Below, in pieces: positions 9,739 to 63,740 of a stretch of DNA of 64,000 nt. The position numbers and the translations under genes were made by a program. The notes under the pieces are model-generated. The model searched no databases. It was not told the origin of the DNA and worked only from the letters and a program-made list of their open reading frames with translations. The stretch lies in contig JBDRED010000028.1 in assembly GCA_043820025.1 (NCBI GenBank), positions 12,274 through 76,273 on the forward strand, read 5' to 3'. The number at the start of each line of letters is the position of its first letter. The first letter of the stretch is position 1. The stretch is from Elusimicrobiota bacterium (GTDB taxonomy: Bacteria; RUG730; JBDRED01).

Positions 9739-9746
9739 AAATTATT

Positions 9747-10589
9747 TTAAAAATACAAACTAAAGCTAGTCAGATGCTGTAAAGATAAGTATTGATGCGA
9801 CCTTATGCTGTAATCTAACCTTAACTTAAACAGCTTAACGCAAAATCCGGCTCCTATAAACGCGGGCCTGGCCTGCATTCCAAACAACAGCTTAAGCCCA
9901 TCCGTAATTTTGTAATCAATGCCATATCTAAAAGATAAGTCGTATGGTATTTCTTTGAATGATTCCATATACATATTGACACGCGCATTAATAAGAAGAT
10001 TAACGCCTAATACAATTTCTCTTCCAATATTTTCTTTATAGTTTCTGCCTATCTGCGCTGAATTAATATTTTTTATCAGGAATGATATAAAGACCGGATT
10101 TTTTTTAAACCCGCACGATATGTCAAATGCAGGGACATATTCAATTTTATTAATGTAATCCTGCTCATTAATCTCTAAACTCATAAATCGAACAGCTAAC
10201 CCAAGACTGCTTATTTCTTTTATTCTGAGTCCGCAAGCTAAAACGATCTCCTGTTCTTGATATAACTCTCTTTTTCCAAAAACAGAATAACCTGCGGCCA
10301 GGCAAACAGACTTCAATACCGGAAATCCAAAAGCCGCAGCATTGACTGAAAGCTCTTCCATATTAAATATTCTTGTATAGAATGTCTGTATGCTAAATCT
10401 ATTAAGAAGAACTAAATTGCATGGCATATAAAATATGCTTAATGGTTCAGGCTCGCTGACTGCCTGCGCGCCTCCGCAGCCGGCGCTATAAGCTGAAAGA
10501 AGTTTATATTCAAACGCAGAAAATCCATCTGTTACTAAAAACACCACCACAGCGCAAACCATTACCCTGCATCGCAAGAATTTTACCAT
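9747..10589 (-). CDS. small outer-membrane beta-barrel, weak PorV/PorQ/FadL-like N-terminal signature
   Basis: 280 aa. Signal peptide ..VTDGFSA, then SAYSAGCGGAQAVSEPEPLSIFYMPCNLV (G-x-GGA ... NP-x-x-L-like pattern). C-terminal SFSLYF. Confidence 0.4.
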   Translation of the reverse strand: MVKFLRCRVMVCAVVVFLVTDGFSAFEYKLLSAYSAGCGGAQAVSEPEPLSIFYMPCNLVLLNRFSIQTFYTRIFNMEELSVNAAAFGFPVLKSVCLAAGYSVFGKRELYQEQEIVLACGLRIKEISSLGLAVRFMSLEINEQDYINKIEYVPAFDISCGFKKNPVFISFLIKNINSAQIGRNYKENIGREIVLGVNLLINARVNMYMESFKEIPYDLSFRYGIDYKITDGLKLLFGMQARPAFIGAGFCVKLFKLRLDYSIRSHQYLSLQHLTSFSLYF

Positions 10590-10641
10590 CGCCTTCTATC
10601 CCTCCCATAAAATTACCGTAACATCAAAAATATTTACGCGC

Positions 10642-12222
10642 TTACAATCTTTTACTGATCACTACTACCCGCTTATTAGTTTCCGTTTTACCTGTTTCCT
10701 TATCAACCGCCTCAGCATAAATCACATACATCCCTATTGGCAAAACAACGCCGTTCTCATCAGTCCCATCCCAAATAAGCTCTTCGCAAAAATCGGTTTC
10801 TCCATGCCACAGATCTTTAACCATTCTGCCTTGGATATCAAATATTTTAATGCCTGCGCTTCTTCCATGAGTATTAATTTTTATTAATGCGTTCCTGTGT
10901 TTTCCTTCTCCAAACGGCGAAAATACAGAAACAGGAACCGCCATAAGACAATCAATGCTTTCATCCTTATCATTGGTAATATTATAATTATACCCGGCGC
11001 CGGGATCAGGCTCGTCAATAATCCAATCACCCGCGCTGTTTGTATCGAGCGGAAATGTTTGAATATTTTGTTTTCTTTTTATTGAACTGCCGGTTGATCC
11101 TCCCCATACAACACAATCCTCTTGAGAATAATCATTGCTGACTGCCAGCCATTGTCCGCAGTCTATACCTTCCTCAAACAAAAGTTTATTAGCGTCGCTC
11201 CAAATCGTGTCATTATTCGCATAAGCAATAAAATCAATAATTTCATTGTCGCGATTTCGTAATATTATAGTATTATCAGTGCCCGCCAAGCCTGTGTCAG
11301 TTGTATAAAATCGTAACGTATTATTCACGGAACTTGCCTCATCAATATCGGATGAATTAAAATAAATTAAAATATAACTATTTTTGGACGGTATAATATC
11401 CGGAAATGTTTTTATTAGCTTAGCGCCCTCGTACAATTTATATCCGCCAATACTGCCTTCTGATTCCGTTATATACAGCTCTACCCAATCCTTTTCGCTC
11501 GAATAAGGCATTATCTCAGTGATATATCCATGAAATTTTCCTTGAGGCAAAATATCCTCTTCATCAATCTGCGATATACTGTTTAACATTCCCGGAGTAG
11601 CCCCGGTTTCACATGCCTTCCAATTACTCTCAGTATCCGCGCCAAGAGCGTTAATTCTCTCAACAGAAATACCATTACCCGGATCAAATGGGATACCATC
11701 CAACCCATCATCATCCGCATTTAAATAACTGCCGGGCGACTCTGTAATTTTTGGCGTTCCATAAGTACTTACACAGGTTCCGCTTGAATCGAACAAAGTA
11801 ATCGGGTCAGAAGAATTACTAAGTCCACTGCCGCCAAGCGTAGAATCTTTGGTAGTAAAAATAACAGCGTCGTTACCAAAGTCATATACCTGAGATCCGC
11901 CTGCATAATCCGCGTCTAAGATAACAGCATACGCTCCTGCTGGCACAACAAATGTTTTAAACACCGCCTTACTATCAGTTATTACGCCATGCGCTTCCGG
12001 ATCCCAAGGAACAATATTATCTAAGCCGTCGCCGTCAGTAAATTTATAGCCATTAATATTAATCTCCGTTGAATCAGCATTATACAATTCAATAAACTCG
12101 CCGCCGGATTCATCATCCGCATTTGCCATTACTTCATTAATAACCAATGAATAACTGTTCGAATACGCAAATCCGCAAATGATAAATACCGGCAATAAAA
12201 ATATAAAATACCTTACTGCCAT
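10642..12222 (-). CDS. secreted protein with two lamin-tail domains and a C-terminal FlgD-Ig-like domain
   Basis: 526 aa with a signal peptide. LTD1 is LVINEVMANADDESGGEFIELYNADSTEININGYKFTDGDG. LTD2 is ITEIMPYSSEKDWVELYITESEGSIGGYKLYEG. C-terminus reads FSPFGEGKHRNALIKIN..IKIFDIQGRMVKDLWHG..WDGTDENGVVLPIGMYVIYAEAVD. Confidence 0.75.
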   Translation of the reverse strand: MAVRYFIFLLPVFIICGFAYSNSYSLVINEVMANADDESGGEFIELYNADSTEININGYKFTDGDGLDNIVPWDPEAHGVITDSKAVFKTFVVPAGAYAVILDADYAGGSQVYDFGNDAVIFTTKDSTLGGSGLSNSSDPITLFDSSGTCVSTYGTPKITESPGSYLNADDDGLDGIPFDPGNGISVERINALGADTESNWKACETGATPGMLNSISQIDEEDILPQGKFHGYITEIMPYSSEKDWVELYITESEGSIGGYKLYEGAKLIKTFPDIIPSKNSYILIYFNSSDIDEASSVNNTLRFYTTDTGLAGTDNTIILRNRDNEIIDFIAYANNDTIWSDANKLLFEEGIDCGQWLAVSNDYSQEDCVVWGGSTGSSIKRKQNIQTFPLDTNSAGDWIIDEPDPGAGYNYNITNDKDESIDCLMAVPVSVFSPFGEGKHRNALIKINTHGRSAGIKIFDIQGRMVKDLWHGETDFCEELIWDGTDENGVVLPIGMYVIYAEAVDKETGKTETNKRVVVISKRL

Positions 12223-12398: not shown

Positions 12399-12974
12399 TC
12401 AATTTATTTTTGATAAATATTTATCTATTATCGCTTTCTCAACATCGCTTTTTAGTTTTTTATTTAACACATACACAATATTTCCGTACTTGCCTGCTTC
12501 ATCCTTTTTCGCAGGCCATGCCACCCAAAGGCCTTTTTTTCCCTGCATTACTCCGCAGTGAACAGCAATAGAATTATTAAACACAATCACTGCGTTTGCT
12601 TTTCTACTGCTATTCTTTTTTAAGATATTTATTTCAGAAATTTTAAATTCAATTGCGGTATTTATCTGCCGTGTTTCAGCGCCGGAACGGACTGATTCAA
12701 TAATTTTGTTTTTTAAATCAGGATCTATAATCTCGACCTGCGGAAGTTCAAACCCGTCAATTACTTTATAATGCGGCAGTAAAATGCTTTTATCTTCATA
12801 CAGGATTATATCTTCAATAACTAAAAATCCGCCTGCTATAATCCGCGCTCGCGTCTGTGTATTATCATGAACAGACACAACGCTTGTAATTTCTAAAAAA
12901 GATTCAGCAAAAACCAATCCGCTGAAAACTAAACAAAGAAACGCTAAAACAATGAGACATATTTTAAATTTCAT
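12399..12974 (-). CDS. exported tandem SpoVG-like domain protein
   Basis: Start corrected to MKFKICLIVLAFLCLVFSGLVFA/ESF (Sec signal). The C-terminal half, ANAVIVFNNSIAVHCGVMQGKKGLWVAWPAKKDEAGKYGNIVYVLNKKLKSDVEKAII, aligns by eye with SpoVG (..[32 protein letters not shown].HP..). The N-terminal half looks like a degenerate second copy. Confidence 0.5.
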   Translation of the reverse strand: MKFKICLIVLAFLCLVFSGLVFAESFLEITSVVSVHDNTQTRARIIAGGFLVIEDIILYEDKSILLPHYKVIDGFELPQVEIIDPDLKNKIIESVRSGAETRQINTAIEFKISEINILKKNSSRKANAVIVFNNSIAVHCGVMQGKKGLWVAWPAKKDEAGKYGNIVYVLNKKLKSDVEKAIIDKYLSKIN

Positions 12975-20547: not shown

Positions 20548-21327
20548 TTAGCCAAAAAAAGCAAGATATTTTCCGGCGTATAAATATATCAAAACTCCGA
20601 TACTCATAAACGGCCCAAAGGCCATCTTATCCTTTCTGCTTTTTTGCCCTGTGATTATAAGAGTTATTCCTGCGACAGAAGCCGCAAGACTGCTATAAAA
20701 TAACACAAAAACTACGCTTGAAAATCCAAAAACAGACCCAATTCCGGCCATATATTTAATATCACCGCCACCCAGCGCCTCCTGCTTGAAAACCTTTTCT
20801 CCAAACAGCGCGATTATCCACATAACCAGCCCGCCCCATAAAAGTCCGGCGAACGAATACAAAACCGCAGTAAGTCCCTGCTTCCCCGGTAAGGGATTTA
20901 CCAACGAAACTAAGAGCCCGAAAATTATCATACCCACAGTTAATTCATCAGGAAGTATCTGATGTTTAAAATCTATAACCGTCATAGTATATATAAAGAA
21001 AAGCAATACCGCTTCTATACCTGATTGGATACTTATTCCATGCATTAGATATGGAACAAAAAAAAGAAGAACCATTACAATCTCTGAAACAGGATATAAC
21101 AAAGAAATTCCGGAACCACAATATTTACATCGCCCCTTTAAAAAGAGATAACTGACTATCGGCACTAAATCAAGCGCGCCAAGCTTTTTGCCACAATGCG
21201 CGCACTCGGATCTTGAAAACATATAAGGCTTATTGTATGGAAGCCTGCATATTAGAACATTTGCAAAGCTTCCAAAAGCTAAACCTAAAAAAATAATAAT
21301 TGTTATGTGTAATATAACCATAATCAT
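20548..21327 (-). CDS. pilD: prepilin peptidase (A24 family)
   Basis: 259 aa and polytopic. Contains Cys pairs CAHCGKKL..CKYCG and GGGDIKYM (catalytic Asp). Confidence 0.9.
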   Translation of the reverse strand: MIMVILHITIIIFLGLAFGSFANVLICRLPYNKPYMFSRSECAHCGKKLGALDLVPIVSYLFLKGRCKYCGSGISLLYPVSEIVMVLLFFVPYLMHGISIQSGIEAVLLFFIYTMTVIDFKHQILPDELTVGMIIFGLLVSLVNPLPGKQGLTAVLYSFAGLLWGGLVMWIIALFGEKVFKQEALGGGDIKYMAGIGSVFGFSSVVFVLFYSSLAASVAGITLIITGQKSRKDKMAFGPFMSIGVLIYLYAGKYLAFFG

Positions 21328-21350
21328 CCAATCAACTTATTAATACAAAT

Positions 21351-21383
21351 AAAAAAGGAGGTTTTTTTAAACCTCCTTTTTTT
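21351..21383 (-). terminator. bidirectional rho-independent terminator after the pilin gene
   Basis: AAAAAAGGAGGTTTttttAAACCTCCTTTTTTT is a perfect stem with A and T runs on both sides. Confidence 0.8.
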
Positions 21384-21408
21384 ATTAAACAGATATTATT
21401 CTATTTAT

Positions 21409-21819
21409 TTACCAAGTGCTGATAACTACGCCCTTTGTATCTGTGTGCGAACAATTTACGCAAACATGCCCGGTTGCTGAGTCATAATACCAGCCGCCGG
21501 CATCATTTGTCCCGCCGTTAACTTTAACAGCCGCTGAATCTGCGTGATAGGTTCCAAGCCTTACCTGAGGAATGCTATCAATAAATGTTCCAACGAAAGG
21601 AGCAGTTGCAATCGTTGTTGGGAATTCACCTTCGCTCTGGCCATAATAAATCGAAATTGCGCTTCTGACCGCGCCTAATCCACCCTTTGTAGCGCCTTCT
21701 TTTGACTTACGAATAAGATCAGCAAATCTTGGCACAGCCACTGCTGCTAATATACCAATGATTGCCACAACGATCATAAGTTCGATAAGTGTAAAACCTT
21801 TCGGTCCCCTCTTTTGCAT
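21409..21819 (-). CDS. type IV pilin / pseudopilin
   Basis: 136 aa. The prepilin leader and N-methylation motif is MQKRGPKG/FTLIELMIVVAIIGILAA. A C-terminal Cys pair reads VCVNC. Confidence 0.9.
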   Translation of the reverse strand: MQKRGPKGFTLIELMIVVAIIGILAAVAVPRFADLIRKSKEGATKGGLGAVRSAISIYYGQSEGEFPTTIATAPFVGTFIDSIPQVRLGTYHADSAAVKVNGGTNDAGGWYYDSATGHVCVNCSHTDTKGVVISTW

Positions 21820-25766: not shown

Positions 25767-25808
25767 GGGCTAAACTCAGTAGTAATACCATTGAGCTTAG
25801 CCCTTTTT
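25767..25808 (+). terminator. rpsT terminator hairpin overlapping the 3' end of convergent holA
   Basis: GGGCTAAACTCA..TGAGCTTAGCCC followed by TTTTT. Confidence 0.6.
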
Positions 25809-26783
25809 AATAATACGCGTTATATCAACAATTATTCTTTCCATTATAATCTCAGGAGAAAGTTTTCCGGTCTTTATACTGCAGTCAGAGTCTGCAAGAA
25901 TATTAATTATCTGCGCTAATTGTTTATTATTGTATTTAGGCGCTGTATATTGAAAACTTGGATCAAGGAACGGAATAACGCGCAAAGACTTAAGCGCCTG
26001 GGCTGAAGCCGCTCCTTCTTGAATTAATGTATTGTACTTGTAGAACTTTATAAACCTGTCTGATAGTGCGTATAGCATAAAATTCAGAGAGCGCGGATCA
26101 TTTAATGATATATGCAAAAGCATTCTTAACGCGTCTTTATACTTGCCATCGCTCACCTTCGCGCTCCATTCATAAACATTCGAATCTCCGGAAAGCATAA
26201 CAGCCGCGACATCATCGCGCGTAATAACGCCTCTCCCTTCGCTATAACTAATCATTGACTCTATCTCTTTGCCAACATCAACTGTGTTTTCGCCCACAAG
26301 CTCAACAAACGCGTGAAGAGCGTCTTCATTTATGCGCGCCTTTCTTTTTAGGCATTCCGCATACACAAGTTTTGTCAGATCAGATTTTTTGTACGGCCAA
26401 AATATCCTGGCATCGGAATTATCAGTCAAGGTTTTAAACCATGCTTCTGATTTATTCGGACGTTCGGGGTTTACAACTATTAGATAAGTAAATGGGCTTG
26501 GATTCTTAGAATATTCAGCAAGCTTTTTTTTATCTTTAGCTTGATACGCTCCGGCGTTTTTAAGTATTATTAATCTCTTTTGCGACGAGAAAGGCAGTGT
26601 ATTTGCGGTCTGAGCAACTTCGTCAAATCCTGTTTCGTCAGCATAAAAAATATTTATATCAAATTCAGAAATCCCCTCCTTAACAAACCCGGCCTTTAGA
26701 GCATCTACCTCTCTATCTATAGCAATGCTGTTAGCTCCTGAATAAAAATAAATATTAGCGCTCTTCTGCTTTGCTTTTGCCAT
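25797..26783 (-). CDS. holA: DNA polymerase III delta subunit
   Basis: 328 aa in the conserved leuS-lptE-holA position. The N-terminus is HolA-like (IYFYSG..D...ID). Its start overlaps the lptE stop. Confidence 0.8.
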   Translation of the reverse strand: MAKAKQKSANIYFYSGANSIAIDREVDALKAGFVKEGISEFDINIFYADETGFDEVAQTANTLPFSSQKRLIILKNAGAYQAKDKKKLAEYSKNPSPFTYLIVVNPERPNKSEAWFKTLTDNSDARIFWPYKKSDLTKLVYAECLKRKARINEDALHAFVELVGENTVDVGKEIESMISYSEGRGVITRDDVAAVMLSGDSNVYEWSAKVSDGKYKDALRMLLHISLNDPRSLNFMLYALSDRFIKFYKYNTLIQEGAASAQALKSLRVIPFLDPSFQYTAPKYNNKQLAQIINILADSDCSIKTGKLSPEIIMERIIVDITRIIKKG

Positions 26784-27307
26784 TACTCCTTCCTCTCGCT
26801 AATCCTTTCGGCAATATCCTCGGCTAAGTATTTGAGCGCTCTTGTTTGCGCTTCCTTTTCCAGCGTGACATCGCTCTTCCCGGAAGTATCCACAACGCTT
26901 GTGAAAAATATATCATCGCCTGTTATACCCTTTTCACGCCATATAACTTCCTCATCGCTCGTTCTTTTCATTATAACATTCGCGAATATAAGAAGCTGAT
27001 ATTCCTCTACCTCATTATCTTTGCTAAAGGTAAGCGGCATAAGCTTATAATCTGAAATTCTGCCTTCAATATAGTATTCAGAAGTCTCTTTGTTTGTTAA
27101 CACAACATACCTGCTGCTCATAAGTTCGTTGATTATAATATTTGTCAGCGCGGACTCTAAGCCATAATAAACCGTGTCATTAGAGAATTGCGTTAAATAA
27201 ACATTAACCGGTTCCTGGAATTTCTCTGAATCTGCTTTAGGCGCGCTCGCGCACCCGGCCAATAAAAATAATGATACCATGACAAACGATATTAATATTC
27301 TTTTCAT
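26783..27307 (-). CDS. lptE: LPS-assembly lipoprotein LptE
   Basis: Start corrected to MKRILISFVMVSLFLLAGC (lipobox; GGGAGG SD). The body VNVYLTQFSNDT..LTNIIINEL..YYIEGRISDY is LptE-like, and the synteny matches. Confidence 0.75.
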   Translation of the reverse strand: MKRILISFVMVSLFLLAGCASAPKADSEKFQEPVNVYLTQFSNDTVYYGLESALTNIIINELMSSRYVVLTNKETSEYYIEGRISDYKLMPLTFSKDNEVEEYQLLIFANVIMKRTSDEEVIWREKGITGDDIFFTSVVDTSGKSDVTLEKEAQTRALKYLAEDIAERISERKE

Positions 27308-27437: not shown

Positions 27438-27464
27438 GTATTATAATTCTTCCGGCTTCCGGCT
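27438..27464 (-). promoter_or_regulatory. ATTATAAT box with TTCCGGC heptads directly after the leuS stop
   Basis: The plus strand reads gtATTATAATtcTTCCGGCTTCCGGCtta. Confidence 0.4.
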
Positions 27465-29914
27465 TACACTACTATATTTATCAATTTATTCGGAACAAAT
27501 ATTTTCTTAACTATATTTTTACCCTCAATAAAAGACTTTACCTTTTCATTTTCTAATATAATCTTCTCTAAATCATTTTGAGGCATATCGCGCTTAACAT
27601 TTAACTTTGTCCTAAGCTTTCCATTAACCTGCACAATAAAAGTAACCTCTGTCTTCATTGTTTTATTTTCATCAAAAACAGGCCATGCTTCATTAAACAG
27701 CCCGCCTTTATTATTTATACGCCATAATTCCTCGGAAATGTGCGGGGTTATAGGATAGAGCATTACAACAATCGCTAAAACATAATCAATACAGACTTTT
27801 ACGTCAATATCGTTCTTATCCTTTTGCCGGTACAGATAATTAACAGCCTCCATAACGCGGGCGATTGCCGTGTTATAAGAAAAACTATTCATATCATCCG
27901 TTATGCTCTTTATTGTAATATTCATCTCTATCTCTACATCTTTAATAAATTCCTCTGATCCTTTACTCACAGGCATACTAATTAAATCGTCGGCTAATCT
28001 CCATAATCTGTTTAAAAATCTACGCGCTCCCTCAATCCCATCCTCGCTCCATTCCAAATCCTTTGTCGGAGGCGAAGCAAAAAGAGTAAAGAGCCTTAAT
28101 GCGTCAGTGCCGTATTTATCGAGCATATCATTAGGATCGACTATATTGCCTTTTGATTTGGACATCTTAGCTCCATCCTTAATAACCATACCTTGATTTA
28201 ATAGCCTGGTAAACGGCTCGCCGGCTTGAGCCTTTAGCATACCCATATCTATTAATACCTTATTAAAAAATCTTGCGTACAAAAGATGCATACAAGCATG
28301 CTCAGGCCCGCCGACATATTGGTCAACAGGCATCCAGTAATCAACCGCTTCTTTACTAAAAGGCAGTTTAGTGTTTTTTGGATCGCAATATCTTAAAAAA
28401 TACCAGGAAGAATCGACAAATGTATCCATTGTATCCGTTTCCCGCCGCGCTTTGCCGCCGCATACAGGGCATTTTGTATTAACAAATTCCTCGGCATATT
28501 TAAGCGGAGAGTCTCCCATTCCTCTAAACTCAATATTTTTAGGAAGCTTAACCGGCAGGTCATTCTCGTTAACAGCCTGCATACCGCATTTATCGCAATA
28601 GACAAATGGTATTGGCGTGCCCCAGTATCTCTGACGAGAAATTAACCAGTCTTTAAATCTGTAATGTTTCTTAAAAGATCCTCTCTTTTTAGATATTAAA
28701 TATTCCGTAATATTTTTTTTAGCTGTCTCTGTGTCGCATCCGTCAAACCGGCCTGAATTAATTAGCGCGCCATAATCCTCAAACGCCTTGCCTTCGGGCG
28801 CTTTAACGCTCCGGTCTTTTGGAGCAATAACAGTCTTAATACTGAGATTATATTTTTGCGCAAACTCATAGTCTCTCTGATCATGGGCAGGAACAGCCAT
28901 AACAGCGCCTGTTCCATATTCCAATAAAACATAATTACCTATCCAGATAGGAACCGTTTCTCCTGTAATGGGGTGCACTGCGTTAGCGCCTGTGTATATT
29001 CCAACCTTATCCTGTGTTTGCCTATCAAGCGTTGACTGTATTGAAACCTTTTCTATGAACTCATTAATCTCTTTTTTGCGCGCCGCGCCTTTTACTAATT
29101 TTTTAGAAAGCTCATGTTCAGGCGCAAGCACAATATAAGTAACGCCTAAAAGCGTATCAGCTCTTGTAGTGAACACATCTATAGTGTCGTCTGCGCCTTC
29201 AACAGAAAACCGTATTATGGATCCCTTGCTTTCGCCTATCCAGTTTTTCTGCATTGTTATGATACGTTCTGCCCATCCTTCCCGAATAAGCTCATGATCT
29301 TTCAAAAGCGCTTCTTTATAATCAGTTATCTTAAAAAACCATTGCTCAAGTTCTTTTTGCGCAACAAGAGACTCGCATCTCCAGCATTTCCCCTCTTCAA
29401 CCTGTTCATTTGCTAATACTGTCTCGCAATCAGGACACCAATTAACCGTAGCCCTTTTCCTGTAAACAAGCCCTTTCTCATAAAATTTTAAAAACAGCCA
29501 CTGATTCCATCTGTAGTAATCATCCTTGCAGGTAGTAACCTCGCGCGCCCAATCATAACTGAATCCCATACGCCTAAGCTGGCCGCGCATTGCTTCTATG
29601 TTTGACATAGTCCAGTCTTCCGGGTCCTTTTTATATTTAACAGCCGCGTTTTCAGCAGGCAGGCCAAAGGAATCCCAGCCAATCGGATGCATAACATAAT
29701 ACCCCTGCATTCTTCTATGCCGCGCAATAACATCCGCTATTGTATAATTGCGCACATGCCCCATATGCAGTTTACCCGACGGATATGGAAACATTTCTAA
29801 TATATAGTATTTTTTTTCTTTCTTCTTTGGATCTTCTGTAACGGTAAACAGGCCTTTATCATTCCAATATTTCTGCCACCTTTCTTCGATCTCATGCGGG
29901 TCATACGTTCTCAC
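27464..29914 (-). CDS. leuS: leucine--tRNA ligase
   Basis: 816 aa with a GTG start and AGGAGG SD. Contains the HIGH-type motif GKLHMGHVRNY and KMSKS. Confidence 0.97.
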   Translation of the reverse strand: MRTYDPHEIEERWQKYWNDKGLFTVTEDPKKKEKKYYILEMFPYPSGKLHMGHVRNYTIADVIARHRRMQGYYVMHPIGWDSFGLPAENAAVKYKKDPEDWTMSNIEAMRGQLRRMGFSYDWAREVTTCKDDYYRWNQWLFLKFYEKGLVYRKRATVNWCPDCETVLANEQVEEGKCWRCESLVAQKELEQWFFKITDYKEALLKDHELIREGWAERIITMQKNWIGESKGSIIRFSVEGADDTIDVFTTRADTLLGVTYIVLAPEHELSKKLVKGAARKKEINEFIEKVSIQSTLDRQTQDKVGIYTGANAVHPITGETVPIWIGNYVLLEYGTGAVMAVPAHDQRDYEFAQKYNLSIKTVIAPKDRSVKAPEGKAFEDYGALINSGRFDGCDTETAKKNITEYLISKKRGSFKKHYRFKDWLISRQRYWGTPIPFVYCDKCGMQAVNENDLPVKLPKNIEFRGMGDSPLKYAEEFVNTKCPVCGGKARRETDTMDTFVDSSWYFLRYCDPKNTKLPFSKEAVDYWMPVDQYVGGPEHACMHLLYARFFNKVLIDMGMLKAQAGEPFTRLLNQGMVIKDGAKMSKSKGNIVDPNDMLDKYGTDALRLFTLFASPPTKDLEWSEDGIEGARRFLNRLWRLADDLISMPVSKGSEEFIKDVEIEMNITIKSITDDMNSFSYNTAIARVMEAVNYLYRQKDKNDIDVKVCIDYVLAIVVMLYPITPHISEELWRINNKGGLFNEAWPVFDENKTMKTEVTFIVQVNGKLRTKLNVKRDMPQNDLEKIILENEKVKSFIEGKNIVKKIFVPNKLINIVV

Positions 29915-35152: not shown

Positions 35153-36388
35153 TTACTCAAATATTATTTTTACGGTTTTTGATATACCGCCCTGATGAGA
35201 AGTAAGGAAGTTAAGCGCTTTTAGAGAAAGTTCCTCTGCCTTTTTGGGGGTTAGTAGAATATCTTTAACAGCGCAAATTAATTCTTCAGAATTTTTAACC
35301 TGAACTCCTGCGTTGTTTTCCAATACCAGCTTTGCTTCATCAATAAAGTTTCTCATATATTCTCCGAAAATTACCGGTTTTCCTAATGCAATAGGCTCAA
35401 GTATATTATGTCCGCCTGTATCGACTAAACTACCTCCCACAAAAACCACATCAGCCATTTTATAAATATTAATTAAATCTCCCACAGTATCCACAACAAT
35501 AATATCTTCGTCATTATACGCGCTAATTTCCGTATATCTTTTGTAAGAGATATTCTTGTTTTTAAGAACATCTATAATTTTTTCTACATTATGCATATGC
35601 CTTGGAGCTACAACGCACACTAAATCCGGAAAAATTTCTTTTAGCGCTGCAAAGCAATTAATTATTATTCCCTCCTCGCCACTACGCAAACTGCCGGACA
35701 CAAATACCTTTTTTCCGAGAAGAAAATCTTTTTTCACTTCCTTGGCGTTAGTCTGTAATAAATCATATTTTAAATTTGGTATCAGTTTAACCTTATAGTC
35801 ATGACAGCCCATACCAAGAAACCTTTTTTTATAAACATCATTCTGAGCGCATATGCAGACCATATTATTAAGAAGCGGCGCAAATAAAAAATTTAACTTT
35901 TTATATAATTCGTAGGTTTTGTCCGAAATTCTCGCATTAATTAAATAAACCGGGATTTTATTTGATATGCATGTATAAATCATGGTAGGCCAAAGTTCAG
36001 TCTCGATCAATATTAGTTTTTTGATATTAACCTTATAGTGTAAATAACAATGAATAGGCTTGAAATCAAATGGCGCGTAGCAAAGAAATGTATTATGCGG
36101 CAGTTTATTCACAGCTGACGAAAAACCTGTCTCAGTCTGGACAGACAACATCACCGGTTCAAACGAAGACTTTCTAAGCTCTTCAATAAACCTTAACGCT
36201 ATCTTTACCTCTCCCACAGAAGCCGCGTGTATCCAAACATAATCATTGTTGTCAAAATCATAAAATCCAAACCTGTTTTTTAAAAGCCTTGTTTTGCCTT
36301 TAATAATCAAATAAATATAGTATGGAAAAATAATTATTAATAAAATAAATAAAATCAGGTTATAGAGGATAATTGAAGCTAAATACAT
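35153..36388 (-). CDS. waaA: 3-deoxy-D-manno-octulosonic acid (Kdo) transferase
   Basis: 411 aa with an N-terminal TM segment, WIHAASVGEV and GGSLVDTGGHNILEP. Confidence 0.9.
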   Translation of the reverse strand: MYLASIILYNLILFILLIIIFPYYIYLIIKGKTRLLKNRFGFYDFDNNDYVWIHAASVGEVKIALRFIEELRKSSFEPVMLSVQTETGFSSAVNKLPHNTFLCYAPFDFKPIHCYLHYKVNIKKLILIETELWPTMIYTCISNKIPVYLINARISDKTYELYKKLNFLFAPLLNNMVCICAQNDVYKKRFLGMGCHDYKVKLIPNLKYDLLQTNAKEVKKDFLLGKKVFVSGSLRSGEEGIIINCFAALKEIFPDLVCVVAPRHMHNVEKIIDVLKNKNISYKRYTEISAYNDEDIIVVDTVGDLINIYKMADVVFVGGSLVDTGGHNILEPIALGKPVIFGEYMRNFIDEAKLVLENNAGVQVKNSEELICAVKDILLTPKKAEELSLKALNFLTSHQGGISKTVKIIFE

Positions 36389-36414
36389 ATTACACCATAT
36401 AAAAAGGATTGTCT

Positions 36415-37053
36415 TTACAATCTGGATATTTTATCGTCAAGTTCTTTTGTTACTTTATTTAATGAAGCGTTCAATTCCTTCCTTTTTTCTTCGAGATCAT
36501 CGCCTTTTTTTATCTCAATAGGCTCGCCGTACATGTACGCTGCTTTTGAAAATGGAACAGGGATTCTGTACTTATCCCAAGTTTTTTCAAGCACCCAAAA
36601 TTTTACAGACCCTGTGGCAACCGGGATTATAACGCGCCCGCTATGCGCGGCAAGAAAAATTACGCCCATCTTAGCGTCAAAAGCAGGGCCCTTCGGGCCA
36701 TCAACGGTAAACGCGACATCAAGCCCGTCTTTAATTTTTTTAAACATTTCACGCGCAGCGCCAACAGCGCCCCTGCTGCTCGACCCTCTAACAATATTAT
36801 AACCAAACCCTTTTAATATTTTTGTCTGCAGTTCTCCGTCTTTGGATAAACTTGTCATAATACAAATACCGCGATTTCTATGCGAAAAAACGAGAAGAAA
36901 CTGCCTGCCATGCCAGAATGAAAATATTACATTCTTCCCGCTTTTTTTTATACTATCATAATATTCTGTATTAAAGGCGCGCCATCGAAGTGTCCTGCTT
37001 AGAAAGGAAATAAGGCATCTGCCAAAAAATGAAATGATTGATATTTTAAACAT
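36415..37053 (-). CDS. DUF374-type lysophospholipid acyltransferase family protein
   Basis: 212 aa. Contains FWHGRQF and DGPKGP, and shows the usual linkage to waaA. Confidence 0.6.
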   Translation of the reverse strand: MFKISIISFFGRCLISFLSRTLRWRAFNTEYYDSIKKSGKNVIFSFWHGRQFLLVFSHRNRGICIMTSLSKDGELQTKILKGFGYNIVRGSSSRGAVGAAREMFKKIKDGLDVAFTVDGPKGPAFDAKMGVIFLAAHSGRVIIPVATGSVKFWVLEKTWDKYRIPVPFSKAAYMYGEPIEIKKGDDLEEKRKELNASLNKVTKELDDKISRL

Positions 37054-57099: not shown

Positions 57100-57126
57100 T
57101 TAGCACTCTTATCTATTGAGTGCTAA
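57100..57126. promoter_or_regulatory. CIRCE operator (HrcA binding site)
   Basis: TTAGCACTC-ttatctatt-GAGTGCTAA. The inverted repeat matches the consensus perfectly with a 9-nt spacer. Confidence 0.95.
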
Positions 57127-57154
57127 TTATATCCTGAGTACTTATTTTTGTCAA
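57126..57154 (-). promoter_or_regulatory. hrcA operon promoter (TTGACA-17 nt-TATAAT) abutting CIRCE
   Basis: The reverse strand reads cTTGACAaaaataagtactcaggaTATAATTAGCACTC. Confidence 0.8.
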
Positions 57155-57888
57155 GAAGTAATACTTCTTGCAGCAGAAAAGACAAACGCGTCAACACAGC
57201 CGGCGCCTGCTTTTCTTTTTAAAAGTTTCGCGCATGCGTGCAAAGTCGCGCCTGTGGTTGCTATATCATCCACCAAAAGAATTCTTTTATTTTTTAATAA
57301 TATTGGATTATTTATGCTAAACGCGTCCTTAAGTTCATTTTTTCTCTCCTCTTCGGACAATCCGAAAAGCGGTTTTGTATTCTTACTTCTGATTAAAACG
57401 CTATTATTAATCGGCGTAGATATTTTTTCATGCAGCAGATGAGCAATAAGCTCAGCCTGATTAAACCCGCGTTTTCTAAGCCTCTTTTTATGCAGAGGCA
57501 CAGGGATAATATAGTCCCATGATCCGTGAATAATTCTTTTAATATTAATCTCCGGCCTAAACAAAAGCGTTCTATACTCGCTTATCAAATATTTTTTGTT
57601 TGAATATTTTAGACGATGAATAAGTTTGCGCAATGCGGCATTATAATAAAATACAACGCATAATGAATCGTAGCTTCTCTTTCTGCCTTTGCACACAGCG
57701 CACGAATTCCTCGCAGCAGTAACAGGCATGCCGCAGTTAAGGCATCTATTTGTCGCATAGTTTATTGTTTTAAAACATGTCAGGCATATACGCGAATTTT
57801 GATCATCAATTATTTTCCTGCAAACCGCGCATCTGTGCGGAAGTATTAAATTCCAAAATATTTTTATAATTTTCCCGGCTAAGCTCAT
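57151..57888 (-). CDS. comF: ComF-family phosphoribosyltransferase-fold protein
   Basis: Start corrected to MSLAGK (an ATGA overlap with the upstream stop). Contains N-terminal Cys pairs CAVC..CLTC..CLNCG..CAVC and LLVDDIATTGATL. Confidence 0.85.
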   Translation of the reverse strand: MSLAGKIIKIFWNLILPHRCAVCRKIIDDQNSRICLTCFKTINYATNRCLNCGMPVTAARNSCAVCKGRKRSYDSLCVVFYYNAALRKLIHRLKYSNKKYLISEYRTLLFRPEINIKRIIHGSWDYIIPVPLHKKRLRKRGFNQAELIAHLLHEKISTPINNSVLIRSKNTKPLFGLSEEERKNELKDAFSINNPILLKNKRILLVDDIATTGATLHACAKLLKRKAGAGCVDAFVFSAARSITS

Positions 57889-58436
57889 AACCTTTCGCTC
57901 ACCCCTGACACAACGCCCCATCCATCAATTGTGCGTTTCATGATATTTTCCGCAAGAATCTTTGCCGCAGCATCCTGAGCTTCTAATTCGCTTGTGAGCC
58001 CGCCTGCGCTTATGTCATTAATTGAGTAATTAAGCTTTACCTCTAACCGTTTCTCGACCCAGACAACATCTTTTGTTTTTAGATCAACAAACGCTATATC
58101 CACCCATATCCATAATTGGTAAACCTTTGGAGCGTAAAATTCATCAAACTCAACCGGTTCAACTATATACCTGGTTATAGCTCCCTGCAAAAGCGCGTCC
58201 GCATCCTGAACTGCGCCAATACCTACGCGGCTGTCTCTGACAAACGCGTTTTTTACCTCATACACAAGTTTCTGTGTCATTGTGGTATGGCCTGTCGGAT
58301 CAACAAAATCAGCAATAGCGATCTTTCTTATATTCTCAGGAATATTTATCGGCACTCGGTGATACCCATTATCAGCGCAGCCGCTCATTAATCCCATTAA
58401 TAAAAACCCGCTCAACGCGCAAAATCTTTTTTTCAT
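57885..58436 (-). CDS. LptE-like lipoprotein (second paralog) downstream of the giant barrel
   Basis: Start corrected to MKKRFCALSGFLLMGLMSGC (lipobox; GGAGGT SD). The body KIAIADFVDPTGH..KLVYEVKNAF..ALLQGAITRY mirrors the LptE pattern at 26783-27307. Confidence 0.5.
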   Translation of the reverse strand: MKKRFCALSGFLLMGLMSGCADNGYHRVPINIPENIRKIAIADFVDPTGHTTMTQKLVYEVKNAFVRDSRVGIGAVQDADALLQGAITRYIVEPVEFDEFYAPKVYQLWIWVDIAFVDLKTKDVVWVEKRLEVKLNYSINDISAGGLTSELEAQDAAAKILAENIMKRTIDGWGVVSGVSERL

Positions 58437-58456
58437 TTTACCTCCAAAAATAAGTG

Positions 58457-61400
58457 TTAAAATATTATAGAAACATTTACGCTTAACGCAAATGCCCAAA
58501 AATCTCCTTTGTCAAATTCCGGATAATGCGCATAAGTAAAGGTTGCGCCAATCTTTGTCTTAACATTCTTACTTGCTTCATAATCAACATCTGTTGACCA
58601 TGAATACCTGTTTTCATTATCCGTTTCAACATTAAGCGAGCTCCTCTTAAAATCCGCTTTTATTGTGCTGTCAATTATAAGCCTGTTGTCGAACTTAAGG
58701 TAAATACGCGTAAGCGGCAGTTTTACGGCTGTAGGCAGAGCAAAATCAGCCCTTGTCTGAATACTCGCCGAACGCGTTGTTATATCTTGAGTAAGCTCCT
58801 GATTTATATTTCTTTCTTCTGAAAAACTCTCGCCATATTTCGGCGTTATACGCCAAGGGCCATACTGCATTCCCACCTGCATTGACCTTGACATTGCGTT
58901 GCCGTTTCTCGTTATCTTTTGCTGTATAATATCAAAGTCCTTGTCCCAGCTCTTATTATAGTCTAGAGAAATTTCAAATCTGCTGAATAAATTAAATCTG
59001 TATGACCCGCCTGTATTATATTGATCCTTCATTGATATTCTAAATGTCTCGATTGTCTTAAATAAATATTTGCCGGACACCTTGCCATTTGTTATATATT
59101 TTGATAAAAATAACATTTTTTCAATTTCATCCATACTTGCCAAGACATCCGGGTATACTATTGTCTGCGTTTCTTCAACTGTGCCTGTCACCTCTTTCAT
59201 ATCGTCTATCTTGCTATAGTTAACCGTTGTGTCTAATGTGGATATGGGGCTTAGCTTATTTTGTAAATTTAAAAACGCTAATGGCTGCCATTTCCCCGTA
59301 AGCCTTACTGTATCGCGCAATGATTTTGAAACCCTATTGTATTTATTATTAAACTCATCAACGCCATGAACATTACGAATAAAGAATTTATCCCAAACAA
59401 TGTAATCCTTATCAACATTATCCCACCTGTCGCTGTCGTCTAAATTATAACTGCCGGAAAAATTAAGCGAGGAAACAGGAGAACACCATCTCCACGGCAA
59501 AAACTTTTTTACAGACAAGGACGCGTTAACAGCTCCTCTTGATTCGCGGCTGATGTTTTTTGTTGTAAGTTCTACGCGGCCTGTTTCCGTGCTCATATCC
59601 TGGGTATAATTATAATCCTCGCCCACACTCATTTGATAAGAAACCGACGGATTAAACCATCTCTCTAAAAGAAGAATCCTGGACGTCACGCTCGCGCTAT
59701 AATCAGCGGATTTATCATAATAATTCATATCGCCCGACATAAGAGACTTTCTTTCCTTTGTCTTAGTATATCCGGCAGACGGGTTAAGAGTAAGGAGCCA
59801 TGGAACATTAAACTGCGTCTCAGCATTATAATTATCTGTTGTCTCAAGCAGAGCCTCATAACCTCTGGTTGGAGTCGTAGCCCTAAAGACACCGTATTCC
59901 GTCCATTTATTTGAGTGGCCATAACTACCGCTGACATTCTGAGGCAAAAAGCTTCTTATAAAACCCGGCAAAAGCAGAAATCTTCGAGGCACACTATAAG
60001 AAAACCCTGAAGTATAGCTCTCTGTTTCATCCTTACGGTTTAAACGTTCCGTCTCATCAATACTTCTTAGCGCTGTTCCGGTAAATACCGGCAGATATTT
60101 TAGTTTTAGGCTTCCGCCGACTTTCCCGCTCTCGCTTCGAACCAAACCCTCTTCTTCAATACTCGCGTTTGTTTTTTGAGCGTCCGGTATATTACTCTCT
60201 GACTTAATATACTCCGCGTTAAGAGGCATAAAACTTATTCTATTAAACAGCATATTTGCTCCATAAGCATCCTCTTCCCTGCCTGAAGTAATACTGCTTG
60301 TGCCTACCAATTCCCCTTCGCTCGTGCCTGTTGTGATTTTTTCAAAATCAGCGTCAATGTGTTTGTAATGCCCGCTCACATCCATCCATCCGGGCAGAGA
60401 AATATCGGCCGCAGTTTTATACGCGATTCCTTCCTTGCGTTTAACGTCTTCTAAATATATATCATTAATCATTAGTTCGCCTTTTGTTATGGTAAAGTTT
60501 GTATAGTTGCCCACGCCTATTCTCACATCAGTGATGTTAGTCAGCCTAGGCGCGCCTTTATAACCGGTAAATCCGTCGGGAAACCCGTCTAAATCCTTAT
60601 CTTCCAGTTCAATCTCTATGGTTTTCCATCCTGTCCATGTAACCGTTGTGTCCCATATAAAATAATTACTTTCCCCTGCTCCTACTTTCATATACATGTT
60701 TTCCCCGCTGTTATCTCCATATACAAAAAACACGAGACGCCTATACGCCGAGAAATCCTGCGCGCGCCCAAATTGATAGAGAGTATAACCATTATCTCCG
60801 GGCGCTAAATTTTCATATTCCAAAAGCAAAGCCTGCTCATCTTCATCCTCATACAACTTGCCTTTATACAGCTTTTCTGCGAGCGTTTTTTTAATGTCTT
60901 CGAGCTTATCCGTATAATTTGAATTAATCTTTTCATTTACAGCCTGCACGCGCATTGTGCCGGCAGATGTTGCAGGCGTTATGATTGGTTTTTCCCAGTT
61001 AGTATTAACGCTTCGCAGTCCGGCAAGTTTTATCTCGCCATTAATCGCGAAACCTGTCGTGTTTTTTATCGTTAGCCTGACATGTTTTATTGCCACCCAA
61101 TTATTGGAATTCGCTGCCGTAATATTCATCGGAGTAATAAACTGCTTCCAGCCTGACCAGCTGACACCGTCAAATGTCTGTCCGTTTTCTGCGACAATAG
61201 TATTTAAGCCGCTGCCATTCGTTCCATACGAAGAACCCATCAATGGGTCGCCGTTGGATAAAATACTGTCTCCATCCAGGTCTTCTGTGTCTATCTCTCC
61301 GTTATCCGGACGTATTCTTGCATACGGTTCATTTAACGGATTATATTCCCATCCTATATCCTCTCCTCTATTTAAAGTTCCATCATGGTTTACATCTTCA

Positions 61401-63631
61401 GTATCCAGCACATTATCCTGGTCCACGTCCTCGGGAATAACTCCGTAATCAATAAACACATCCTCTCCTTTATTGTCTCCGTAAATGGCAAGCTCCATAA
61501 ATTCCTTTTGCGAATAATCTGATCCGATATTTGATATAGGATACATGATCGCGGCCTCTTCGCCCGCTTCGAGGCTGTAACCAACTTTAAGAACCTGTTC
61601 CTTTTTCTCATTATCATCAAGATTAGGATTAATATCACTAGCCGGGATTTCTTCATCATCCCAGGTAATATGCGTAGTATTAGGAGAGACCCCTGAAAGA
61701 GTTCTCGCTATCCTCCATGAATCCCCATTCATTGGCACATTGTCCTCAAACTTTATGCCCTCCATATTATCAATAAGCGCCTTGCCTTCAATATTCGGAT
61801 CCTGCCAGCTCTTAGCGATTTCTCCTCTTAACGTAGTCTTTATCGGCATCCATCTTGGCTCTAAATTAATCATTGTGTCAGCGTCAATTATTGTTACGCT
61901 CTTTGGAGTTGACCGTATTTGCGGAATAGCCGCGCTTTTTGACGACCTGTTATCAATAACTGTCGCGCCGATAAACCCGTCATGCGGCAGGTCGTATGTT
62001 GTGCGCAAACCAACAAGCGTCTGCTGGTATTGCCCGCCAAAAGGCATGTATTCGTATGTTACCGTAATCTTGCTATCCTTGCCTATACTGCCCTCATTCA
62101 TAAATGTAATAAATCCGATATCATAGTCTATAATATAATCAACATCCCTAGCCAAAACATTTCCGTCTATCTCAATACGCTCCGACCCGATTACAAGATT
62201 AGGCCTTACGTTAAATGTTTTTATTCTATGATAATACTCTGTATAGATTATGTAATGATGCTTCGCGCTGTTTACGTCATAAATGTCAGGGTAATCAGTT
62301 GAGAAAGGCTTATCTGAAACAAAATCCATAATACCTGTGTCAAAATCAATATTAACTTTATCGTATATATTTTCCCAGCCGGGGACAGCGTCTCTATTCT
62401 GGTCAATTATTTTAACTATAAAATCGCGGCCAAGCGTTCCTTTAATAATTTTTCTATTGCCTAAGTAATAGTAATTTTTTTGTTCCTGCGCGCCGGCAAC
62501 CTGAGCAGTCTCAGGCGCATCCTTTAAAAGCACACAATCATTTTCTGAACCGTTTGCGAACCACGCGCTGTCACCCTTTTTCTTATAATTTATTGCAATA
62601 ATATACCCCGGGTCGATCGTTGTCTTAAAGCTAATTATATTTTTGGCAAAATCGATTGTGTAATCCCGGCCCGGATATTGCAGATCAAAGTAATAAGTCG
62701 CATCGCTCGCAAGCGATCCGTTTATATATTTTAATGCCGCCCTCTCTGCGCCGCTGTAATTATTATTGCCGTTTCTATCGTCAATATAAACCTTAATATT
62801 TTCTATATTGCCGTCAGGCTCTATATTGCCAAATCTCAATGAGTAATGTTTTCTGCGCATGTAAGAGGTATCGAACATGTCCTTTTTTTCAAAGGTTGTG
62901 TTTCCGGAAAACCGTTTTGTTTCTGTAATACCCTTTGTGCGCGACGCAATACCCATCATACCAAGCTTATTGTATTTCGCCTTAAATCTTAATCCGAACA
63001 AGTTTTTATTATATCCGACAAATTCCGTAGAAGGCAGGCTTAGATTAATATCTCCAAAAGCTATTTCCTCTATAACCTCGTCATTTTCAGCCACTGCTCC
63101 ATAATCATCGATTATATCGCCTTTCTTATCCCCCCTATAAACCACTGATATATCGCGTTTATTAGTTGTCTGGTCGTTATAATCAACATCAACCGATATC
63201 TTTCTCCCAACCTTGCCTTTGATCTTTACCTGTAATTCCTGCGTCATATCAAAACCTTTTGTTACGCCTGCGGGAGTGCCGCGCTTCTCGCCTTCATCTT
63301 TGTCATTATAATTAACAAACCCATATTTAATCCCTATAGATTTTTGTCCCGAAATACTGAGCTTTGACTGATATGGCAGGTCAAATGTAAAGCCTTCTTC
63401 CTGTAAGGCTTCATGAAGCGTGCATGTAGAAAATGCTGTCTCTATTTGCATCTCCGGAATTTTTTTGGGCGAATAAGCGCTTTTTTCTTTTTCTTTACGC
63501 ATGCGTTTCCAGTAAGTTCTATTTAGTTTTATATTTGAATCTGAAACCACGCCTGTGCCATATACCGGGAATATTGCGCTTACCCAGAAAACATAAAGCA
63601 GGATTATTGTGATGAGTTTATTTTTCAGCAT
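58457..63631 (-). CDS. giant (1724 aa) outer-membrane beta-barrel protein, possibly SprA/Sov-like
   Basis: Signal peptide MLKNKLITIILLYVFWVSAIFPVYG. Composition is beta-rich. Acidic DxDxDG-like clusters occur mid-protein. The C-terminus reads FWAFALSVNVSIIF. The N-terminal block ..VKIKGKVGRKISVDVDYNDQ..EEIAFGDINLSLPSTEFVGYNKNLFGLRFKAKYNKLGMMGIASRTKG recalls SprA N-terminal repeats, but this is from memory and unverified. Confidence 0.55.
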   Translation of the reverse strand: MLKNKLITIILLYVFWVSAIFPVYGTGVVSDSNIKLNRTYWKRMRKEKEKSAYSPKKIPEMQIETAFSTCTLHEALQEEGFTFDLPYQSKLSISGQKSIGIKYGFVNYNDKDEGEKRGTPAGVTKGFDMTQELQVKIKGKVGRKISVDVDYNDQTTNKRDISVVYRGDKKGDIIDDYGAVAENDEVIEEIAFGDINLSLPSTEFVGYNKNLFGLRFKAKYNKLGMMGIASRTKGITETKRFSGNTTFEKKDMFDTSYMRRKHYSLRFGNIEPDGNIENIKVYIDDRNGNNNYSGAERAALKYINGSLASDATYYFDLQYPGRDYTIDFAKNIISFKTTIDPGYIIAINYKKKGDSAWFANGSENDCVLLKDAPETAQVAGAQEQKNYYYLGNRKIIKGTLGRDFIVKIIDQNRDAVPGWENIYDKVNIDFDTGIMDFVSDKPFSTDYPDIYDVNSAKHHYIIYTEYYHRIKTFNVRPNLVIGSERIEIDGNVLARDVDYIIDYDIGFITFMNEGSIGKDSKITVTYEYMPFGGQYQQTLVGLRTTYDLPHDGFIGATVIDNRSSKSAAIPQIRSTPKSVTIIDADTMINLEPRWMPIKTTLRGEIAKSWQDPNIEGKALIDNMEGIKFEDNVPMNGDSWRIARTLSGVSPNTTHITWDDEEIPASDINPNLDDNEKKEQVLKVGYSLEAGEEAAIMYPISNIGSDYSQKEFMELAIYGDNKGEDVFIDYGVIPEDVDQDNVLDTEDVNHDGTLNRGEDIGWEYNPLNEPYARIRPDNGEIDTEDLDGDSILSNGDPLMGSSYGTNGSGLNTIVAENGQTFDGVSWSGWKQFITPMNITAANSNNWVAIKHVRLTIKNTTGFAINGEIKLAGLRSVNTNWEKPIITPATSAGTMRVQAVNEKINSNYTDKLEDIKKTLAEKLYKGKLYEDEDEQALLLEYENLAPGDNGYTLYQFGRAQDFSAYRRLVFFVYGDNSGENMYMKVGAGESNYFIWDTTVTWTGWKTIEIELEDKDLDGFPDGFTGYKGAPRLTNITDVRIGVGNYTNFTITKGELMINDIYLEDVKRKEGIAYKTAADISLPGWMDVSGHYKHIDADFEKITTGTSEGELVGTSSITSGREEDAYGANMLFNRISFMPLNAEYIKSESNIPDAQKTNASIEEEGLVRSESGKVGGSLKLKYLPVFTGTALRSIDETERLNRKDETESYTSGFSYSVPRRFLLLPGFIRSFLPQNVSGSYGHSNKWTEYGVFRATTPTRGYEALLETTDNYNAETQFNVPWLLTLNPSAGYTKTKERKSLMSGDMNYYDKSADYSASVTSRILLLERWFNPSVSYQMSVGEDYNYTQDMSTETGRVELTTKNISRESRGAVNASLSVKKFLPWRWCSPVSSLNFSGSYNLDDSDRWDNVDKDYIVWDKFFIRNVHGVDEFNNKYNRVSKSLRDTVRLTGKWQPLAFLNLQNKLSPISTLDTTVNYSKIDDMKEVTGTVEETQTIVYPDVLASMDEIEKMLFLSKYITNGKVSGKYLFKTIETFRISMKDQYNTGGSYRFNLFSRFEISLDYNKSWDKDFDIIQQKITRNGNAMSRSMQVGMQYGPWRITPKYGESFSEERNINQELTQDITTRSASIQTRADFALPTAVKLPLTRIYLKFDNRLIIDSTIKADFKRSSLNVETDNENRYSWSTDVDYEASKNVKTKIGATFTYAHYPEFDKGDFWAFALSVNVSIIF

Positions 63632-63740
63632 AATGTATATAATATCCTACAAATAGCCTATTTGCAAGATATAAGGCAATATAAAAATGTATGATCTTAT
63701 TTATTATAAGCAGTGTTTCTATAGAAATTTTCTATTATGT

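Follow-up and report, generated by a model that had tools for sequence, protein, structure and literature searches.

Two described outer-membrane systems stand closest to the locus reported here. The first is SprA/Sov, the translocon of the T9SS (type IX secretion system): F. johnsoniae SprA (PDB 6H3I, 6H3J and 8GL8) has 2403 residues and a capped 36-strand barrel, and its idle pore is sealed by a separate protein (PMC10994853). The literature that we searched treats T9SS as confined to Bacteroidota or to the Fibrobacteres-Chlorobi-Bacteroidetes (FCB) group, contains no paper placing it in Elusimicrobia, and knows SprA solely in its 2400-residue form. The second is LptD-LptE (PDB 4Q35, 5IV9 and 8H1S), the lipopolysaccharide (LPS) translocon, which combines a large barrel with a small lipoprotein. 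In this report, we describe three adjacent genes of an Elusimicrobiota bacterium that call both systems to mind: one for a giant outer-membrane barrel, one for an LptE-family lipoprotein that we named 'lip', and comF. They lie on a stretch of 64,000 nucleotides (contig JBDRED010000028.1), designated below as the window, to which all unprefixed coordinates refer.

We consider it highly probable that the barrel, a protein of 1724 residues, is a member of the SprA family. To explain the locus as a whole, we lean towards a compact translocon of the SprA type that serves a T9SS-like pathway of Elusimicrobiota, the LptE paralog being a possible accessory. A first-pass annotation, made from the letters of the window, had already proposed a SprA-like barrel with an LptE-like partner as an undescribed arrangement; it does appear to be one, as a SprA-LptE link is absent from the searched literature beyond a database listing. 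The sequence basis of the study consists of the 64 kb of this genome and of flanks of up to 10 kb of related loci, among them a species-level set of 80 GTDB loci (L001-L080) and a metagenome set of 80 loci (L087-L166).

A compact member of the SprA family

The barrel gene occupies 58457..63631 on the minus strand. All the elements first noticed in this large open reading frame (ORF) - that is, a Sec signal, two acidic clusters and an SVNVSIIF end - are present in its translation. The N-terminus is of the Sec type, MLKNKLITIILLYVFWVSAIFPVYG/TG, with the signal peptide at residues 1-25 (...FPVYG/TG; 63557..63631), and the C-terminal SVNVSIIF is followed by a TAA stop codon at 58459-58457. Database searches returned 330 relatives at E<=1e-5, and 351 relatives were found in GTDB species representatives; the ORF is therefore not a chance one. 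The best 120 of the 330, all at E<=1e-203, are 1600-1950 residues long, except for three partial entries, and the named ones are mostly from Elusimicrobiota.

Several comparisons link the protein to SprA. The SprA/Sov family model TIGR04189 matched it at E=2.5e-46, although with a score under the curated cutoff; the strongest stretch covers residues 470-643 (61703..62224) and model positions 599-786 of 2319. The same model matched all 20 of the sampled homologues, at best with E=3.5e-62, and precomputed matches to PF14349 (SprA_N) exist for several homologues. A family profile built from 20 homologues aligned with F. johnsoniae SprA (PDB 6H3I/6H3J; E=4e-37) over three collinear blocks, which run from the N-terminal region to about residue 1127: residues 111-232 correspond to SprA 146-267, residues 413-551 to SprA 603-781, and residues 771-1127 to SprA 1158-1598. 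The first block constitutes an SprA_N-like N-terminal region (residues ~111-232, approximately 62936..63301).

The predicted structure points in the same direction. An AlphaFold2 (AF2) model of residues 525-1724, computed from an alignment of 53 sequences, reached a mean predicted local distance difference test (pLDDT) score of 81.9. In a Foldseek search, its four top PDB matches were SprA chains (E 1.6e-40 to 1e-31; TM-score by query length, TMq, 0.53-0.62), followed by CBM11 domains at about 1e-7, which derive from an inserted jelly-roll. LptD was matched at E=1.5e-4 with a TMq of 0.16, a value that any large barrel would reach. Searches with the LptD families (PF04453, PF03968 and NCBIfam) gave no match to the protein at E<=1, and no N-terminal LptD_N/OstA jelly-roll was detected in it, its N-terminus being collinear with that of SprA. 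Because the TIGR04189, PDB profile and Foldseek matches all converge on SprA, we regard the protein as a compact SprA-family barrel and not as a relative of LptD. The resemblance to SprA/Sov that the first-pass annotation had proposed is thus borne out by sequence and by fold; its suggestion that SprA and LptD models be compared came out in favor of SprA, with the reservation about the cutoff, and the LptD side yielded nothing.

Homology to SprA extends along the length of the protein, the predicted fold is strongly similar over residues 525-1724, and the likeness includes the acidic cluster region, the jelly-roll insert, the Sec signal and the aromatic C-terminus. The two Asp/Glu-rich acidic clusters lie within 61244..61426, at residues 736-758 (61358-61426) and 776-796 (61244-61306); the second aligns, in the family profile, to SprA from position 1158 on. 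Conservation was read from two sets, of 20 and of 98 homologues. E745, D746, E757, D758 and G760 are invariant among the 98, while D784 is invariant among the 20 and nearly so among the 98. The clusters may, we infer, bind calcium. The insert, at residues 945-1011 (60599..60799), is a CBM11-like jelly-roll located within the block aligned to SprA 1158-1598. It matches CBM11 structures (Foldseek E=3.5e-7; TM-score by target length, TMt, 0.64), and it accounts for the sole Pfam match of the protein, a sub-threshold one to PF03425 (CBM_11; 24.3 bits, gathering score 27). A 100% identical NCBI entry, from an Elusimicrobiota metagenome-assembled genome, bears the name 'carbohydrate binding domain-containing protein' because of this insert. 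The barrel region proper spans residues ~1048-1724 (58460..60490) and ends in ...SIIF; DSSP assigned 28 long beta strands to the C-terminal 675 residues of the partial model, and the terminal Phe is invariant among the 20 homologues and nearly invariant among the 98.

The protein also differs from SprA: it counts 1724 residues instead of 2403, and it falls below the curated family cutoff. A further difference concerns the surroundings, as the Elusimicrobiota gene is flanked by lptGF and comF, with an LptE-family lipoprotein downstream in one clade.

An LptE-family lipoprotein in the same transcription unit

The stop codon of the barrel gene is separated from the ATG of lip (58436) by a 20-nt spacer that contains GGAGG. 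The lip gene (57885..58436, minus strand) encodes 183 residues with the lipobox LMSGC (Cys20), in agreement with the first-pass annotation, which had placed an LMSGC lipoprotein 20 nt downstream of the barrel gene; a 204-residue version of the ORF with a TTG start was discarded as an artefact of the first-start rule. The comF ATG overlaps the lip TGA as ATGA, as also noted earlier. This last gene of the unit (57151..57888, minus strand) encodes a double zinc ribbon followed by a phosphoribosyltransferase (PRTase) domain, with PF18912 and PF00156 above threshold and TIGR00201 at E=3e-35.

A consensus scan detected a weak promoter-like site, TTGCAA-17-TATTAT (9/12 positions; 63639..63667, minus strand), just 5' of the ATG of the barrel gene, and a perfect sigma-70 consensus, TTGACA-17-TATAAT, on the same strand at 57126-57154, between comF and hrcA. 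Upstream of the barrel, on the same strand, the gene is a guaB-like C-terminus with its end near 63745. Given the weak site 5' of the barrel and the perfect consensus after comF, the barrel gene, lip and comF look like one transcription unit, and a new one probably starts at 57154-57126, before hrcA. The latter site suggests that the heat-shock genes hrcA-grpE-dnaK-dnaJ are transcribed apart from the barrel operon.

The membership of lip in the LptE family is well defined. PF04390 (LptE), its sole Pfam match, was obtained above threshold (32.5 bits, gathering score 23), and its NCBI name is 'LPS assembly lipoprotein LptE'. The top Foldseek match of its AF2 model (pLDDT 84.8) is the LptE chain 8h1s_B, after which come many other LptDE entries, at E ~1e-7, and further lipoproteins of the LptE fold, namely PelC and CsgG (E ~1e-6) and FlgT; no chain of an SprA complex is among the 50 fold matches listed for the model. 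PelC, which acts with PelB, and CsgG belong to the small lipoproteins of this fold that repeatedly serve outer-membrane export channels, but they form many-subunit rings and are absent from the Pfam results for lip, which is an LptE family member at the sequence level. A database search with the single lip sequence returned only itself, and relatives were retrieved with a three-sequence profile.

The window carries a second LptE-family gene, outside the operon (26783..27307, minus strand; PF04390 43.5 bits), flanked by leuS (27464-29914) and holA (25797-26783). The leuS-lptE-holA order is common, not obligatory; lip is found outside it, with the SprA-like gene on one side and comF on the other. 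The parallel drawn earlier between the two lipoproteins is confirmed: both match PF04390, and BLASTP aligned lip, which has the LptE fold, to the leuS-linked copy with 24% identity (E=4e-12; 23% over a trimmed alignment). A C-terminal motif, KRTIDGW..SGVSEKK, is common to the lip clade and to the LptE encoded next to leuS in Endomicrobia; the leuS-linked LptE of the window lacks it.

Conservation of the gene neighborhood

At the level of the phylum, the most frequent neighbors of the barrel are lptG-lptF and comF. The lptG-lptF pair lies at most 1.5 kb upstream of the barrel in 48 of the 55 species-level loci with enough flank, mostly in divergent orientation and co-directionally in two (L012 and L019), and the metagenome loci have it in 54 of 80 cases; examples are L082:7729-9989 and, among the other related loci, L168:309-2490. 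In the window itself, lptF and lptG were not found with the queries used, and the guaB-like C-terminus stands upstream instead. Downstream, comF starts less than 400 nt from the barrel in 42 of 69 loci and often overlaps the preceding gene; gap, pgk and secG are the next conserved neighbors after it.

The association of the barrel with lip is far more restricted. An LptE-like gene follows the barrel at about seven loci, all of one clade, and in the species-level set at L004 only (1/80); a metagenome scan with the lip profile found nothing. The order barrel-lip-comF recurs in L004, in the two closest relatives, L081 (P0002, ~45% barrel identity) and the P0003 locus (42%), as well as in L169 (39%), in L168, where the full order is lptG-lptF, barrel, lip, comF, and probably on the P0007/P0124 contig. 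Barrel identities across the lip-bearing loci range from 36 to 46%. In a neighbor-joining tree of 142 barrel proteins, these loci make up two basal groups of one 28-leaf clade, in whose other members the place of lip is taken by a winged-helix regulator gene (PadR-like motif) or by different genes. Such a distribution fits one old insertion followed by loss. Within one lineage, therefore, the barrel-lip pair is real and old, and it does not characterise the barrel family as a whole.

Downstream ORFs of 171-189 residues in L001, L002, L003, L005, L013 and L044 had been considered as divergent LptE genes; these candidates were ruled out, as they are winged-helix regulators devoid of a lipobox, their PadR assignment being read from sequence alone.

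Candidate carriers and cargo

Related loci contain genes expected of a T9SS-like pathway. Upstream of lptGF in L082 (3765-7722), in L083 (3455-7751) and in at least 14 other loci resides a trio whose members are a tetratricopeptide repeat (TPR) protein, a barrel of the PorV/PorQ family and a metalloprotease of the M6 family. The L082 and L083 barrels matched NF033709 (PorV_fam) with E=7e-18 and 1e-14 (65 and 55 bits, respectively), and PorV-like genes recur in 16 of the 80 GTDB loci and in 16 of the 80 metagenome loci. The M6 proteases end in an immunoglobulin (Ig)-like domain similar to the tails found in PorU, in PorZ and in T9SS cargo, and the C-terminal domains of three related-locus proteins pass the type A sorting domain model TIGR04183 (26.6, 32.2 and 36.4 bits, cutoff 23 bits). 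Putative PorV-family barrels and type A sorting-domain proteins, in genomes related to that of the window, are thus another trait shared with SprA/Sov, and they point to protein secretion rather than to a replacement of LptD. A role of the barrel in protein secretion is, in our estimation, probable.

The window contains a cluster of three minus-strand genes, all for secreted proteins, that may belong to the same system. The first (10642-12222) encodes a candidate cargo of 526 residues, with a lamin-tail domain (PF00932) and a C-terminal domain similar to FlgD-Ig and to the cargo C-terminal domain (CTD), whose matches are all sub-threshold (FlgD, 25 bits; PorZ/PorU tail, 15-17; TIGR04183, 12.2). 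Directly after it comes a PorV/PorQ-like barrel of 280 residues (9747-10589), which matched NF033709 weakly (E=6.5e-7; 29 bits, cutoff 90 bits), then an orphan barrel-like protein of 592 residues that ends in ...SYSF and has no family match (7960-9738). A search of the window with the PorV-like queries used returned nothing. We tentatively view the cluster (7960-12222) as a cargo-plus-carrier module of the barrel's system. A match of the lamin-tail protein to a home-made sorting-domain profile was not counted, as it was circular, the sequence being part of the seed.

A probable translocon and its possible accessory

How might these elements work together? Most likely, the barrel would export proteins equipped with a C-terminal type A sorting domain, which carrier barrels of the PorV/PorQ-like type would then receive. 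In the window's lineage, the LptE paralog would have been inserted between the translocon gene and comF, and be translated from the shared mRNA. Since a separate LptE keeps the canonical leuS-holA position, lip may have been free to take on a new role, which could be that of an outer-membrane accessory of the giant barrel, serving either as a plug, luminal or periplasmic, or as a template for folding, by analogy with LptE for LptD and with the unrelated Plug protein for SprA. What lip could share with the SprA-Plug assembly (PDB 6H3J) is a concept, a separate protein that seals the idle pore; the analogy would be a functional one. The homology and fold of both proteins, the operon structure, the clade-restricted pair and the cargo and PorV-like genes of related loci are observed directly, whereas transport of proteins by the barrel and binding of lip to it are inferred. 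Partnership between lip and the barrel is accordingly the more tentative part of the proposal, and on present indications remains somewhat doubtful.

Several observations weigh against this proposal. Regarding the barrel, the TIGR04189 score of 157.7 bits is below the curated cutoff of 200 bits, F. johnsoniae SprA is longer by some 700 residues, and all PorV-like matches are below the family cutoff of 90 bits. Regarding lip, its pairing with the barrel, which the first-pass annotation invited us to look for across related genomes, does not generalize: 79 of the 80 GTDB species loci, and every one of the 80 metagenome loci, lack an LptE-like neighbor. Two lip-type orthologues are located away from any SprA-like gene: L085:7460-9330 reads DUF4416-lip-comF, with lip ending at 8567 and comF starting 4 nt on, at 8572, so that the lip-comF link is kept there without the barrel, and L170:1627-2196 reads RNase G-lip. 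In a neighbor-joining tree, based on ~170 columns and not robust, lip falls nearer to the LptE found beside leuS in Endomicrobia (31-35% identity) than to the genome's own copy. Finally, as comF, by appearance functionally unrelated, is linked just as tightly, the adjacency may be no more than inherited gene order.

Part of this evidence would equally suit a different history, and judging from sequence lip may be either a neofunctionalised partner of the barrel or a relocated ordinary LptE. According to the second possibility, lip would be the working LPS-assembly LptE, or one of two, of a divergent LptD encoded elsewhere; its position would be inherited, and the barrel would still be of the SprA type. 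The family match, fold and NCBI name of lip all agree with this, its placement beside the LptE of Endomicrobia, notably through the C-terminal motif and the identity shared with the LptE that Endomicrobium proavitum and its relatives encode next to leuS, is compatible with it, and both the orthologues devoid of an SprA-like neighbor and the general lack of an LptE-like neighbor in the barrel family speak for it. The organism, moreover, is expected to need LPS assembly: the window encodes, at 35153-37053 (minus strand), a transferase of 3-deoxy-D-manno-octulosonic acid (Kdo), kdtA (PF04413, 153 bits), adjoining a DUF374 protein, which implies that Kdo-containing LPS (Kdo-lipid A) is made. A search of 168 loci and the window with an approximate E. 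coli LptD query revealed two weak candidates only, at L164:280-2373 (minus strand, 697 residues) and L064:2235-4502 (plus strand, 755 residues), and none in the window. Their N-terminal matches to LptD_N, LptC and LptD (NF002997) are sub-threshold, in the PDB follow-up too; by their sequences, these proteins may be highly divergent LptDs overlooked by annotation. Opposed to an ordinary LptE are the lack of an LptD in the window, the LptE that the genome already has in the leuS-holA slot, and the 20-nt coupling of lip to the barrel, kept across lineages whose barrels have diverged to 36-46% identity. We hold this explanation to be unlikely, while taking it more seriously than those that follow.

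The Lpt genes around the barrel raise another possibility, that the SprA-like barrel and the LptE-family lipoprotein form the outer-membrane end of LPS export in Elusimicrobiota, in place of LptD. A large barrel gene next to one for a small LptE-fold lipoprotein, with a genomic link to lptF and lptG, is indeed reminiscent of LptD-LptE: lptG-lptF is directly upstream in most loci with enough flank, in two of them co-directionally, and L168 aligns lptG-lptF, the barrel, the LptE-like gene and comF in a row. A 2024 comparative study reported that LptD is absent from all Endomicrobiaceae despite their LPS synthesis genes (PMC11257099), yet E. proavitum keeps a leuS-linked LptE. However, the barrel is SprA by sequence and fold, without a PF04453 or PF03968 match or a detectable LptD_N/OstA jelly-roll, the canonical context is occupied here by the other LptE, and PorV-like carriers and type A sorting-domain cargo are encoded in the same neighborhoods. 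The equal conservation of comF, gap, pgk and secG makes gene order alone weak evidence, and the L164 and L064 matches indicate that LptD may exist unrecognised. For these reasons - SprA sequence and fold, no detectable jelly-roll, secretion-type neighbors and candidate LptDs - we rate LPS export by this barrel as improbable. The same low rating applies to a broader mechanistic tie between an SprA-type barrel and the Lpt pathway, in which the barrel would be either the missing LPS translocon, acting with an LptE-family lipoprotein, or a pore that receives LPS from LptFG/LptE to anchor exported proteins.

Lastly, joint action of the barrel and ComF, whether in DNA uptake or in some other process linked to ComF, can be set aside as very improbable: comF is the tightest partner phylum-wide, often overlapping the preceding gene, as it does lip in the window, but the homology of the barrel and the sorting-domain cargo nearby indicate protein export, the next conserved neighbors are housekeeping genes, ComF-family PRTases are cytoplasmic, and we know of no link between them and SprA-type barrels.

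T9SS has not been described in Elusimicrobiota, and a compact SprA family of 1600-1900 residues is present there in hundreds of species, hidden in public annotation under the names hypothetical or 'carbohydrate binding'. If functional, the system would extend T9SS-type secretion to a deep-branching phylum, provide a smaller translocon for structural work and perhaps reveal which parts of the machinery are dispensable. The barrel is repeatedly linked to Lpt genes, to lptFG across the phylum and to an LptE paralog in one clade; together with the failure of one study to find LptD in part of the phylum, this raises a testable question on how giant barrels are plugged or assembled, and on whether secretion and LPS export are coupled. 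Were the tie to Lpt true, the origins of the T9SS translocon and of the LPS translocon would be linked; if adjacency reflects inherited gene order only, the outcome is a useful re-annotation and little more.

Other features of the window

Three observations concern other parts of the window. GC (guanine-cytosine) skew is negative in every 2-kb bin of positions 1-64000, and the minus strand carries almost all of the real genes, a combination that fits one long co-oriented replichore segment. A type IV pilin-like protein and, next to it, a likely prepilin peptidase were recognised from sequence at 20548-21819 (minus strand). The gene at 12399-12974 (minus strand) encodes a protein whose SpoVG domain (residues 112-186) follows a stretch of about 100 residues; this stretch starts with a segment resembling a signal or membrane anchor, which is unusual for SpoVG, a cytoplasmic protein.

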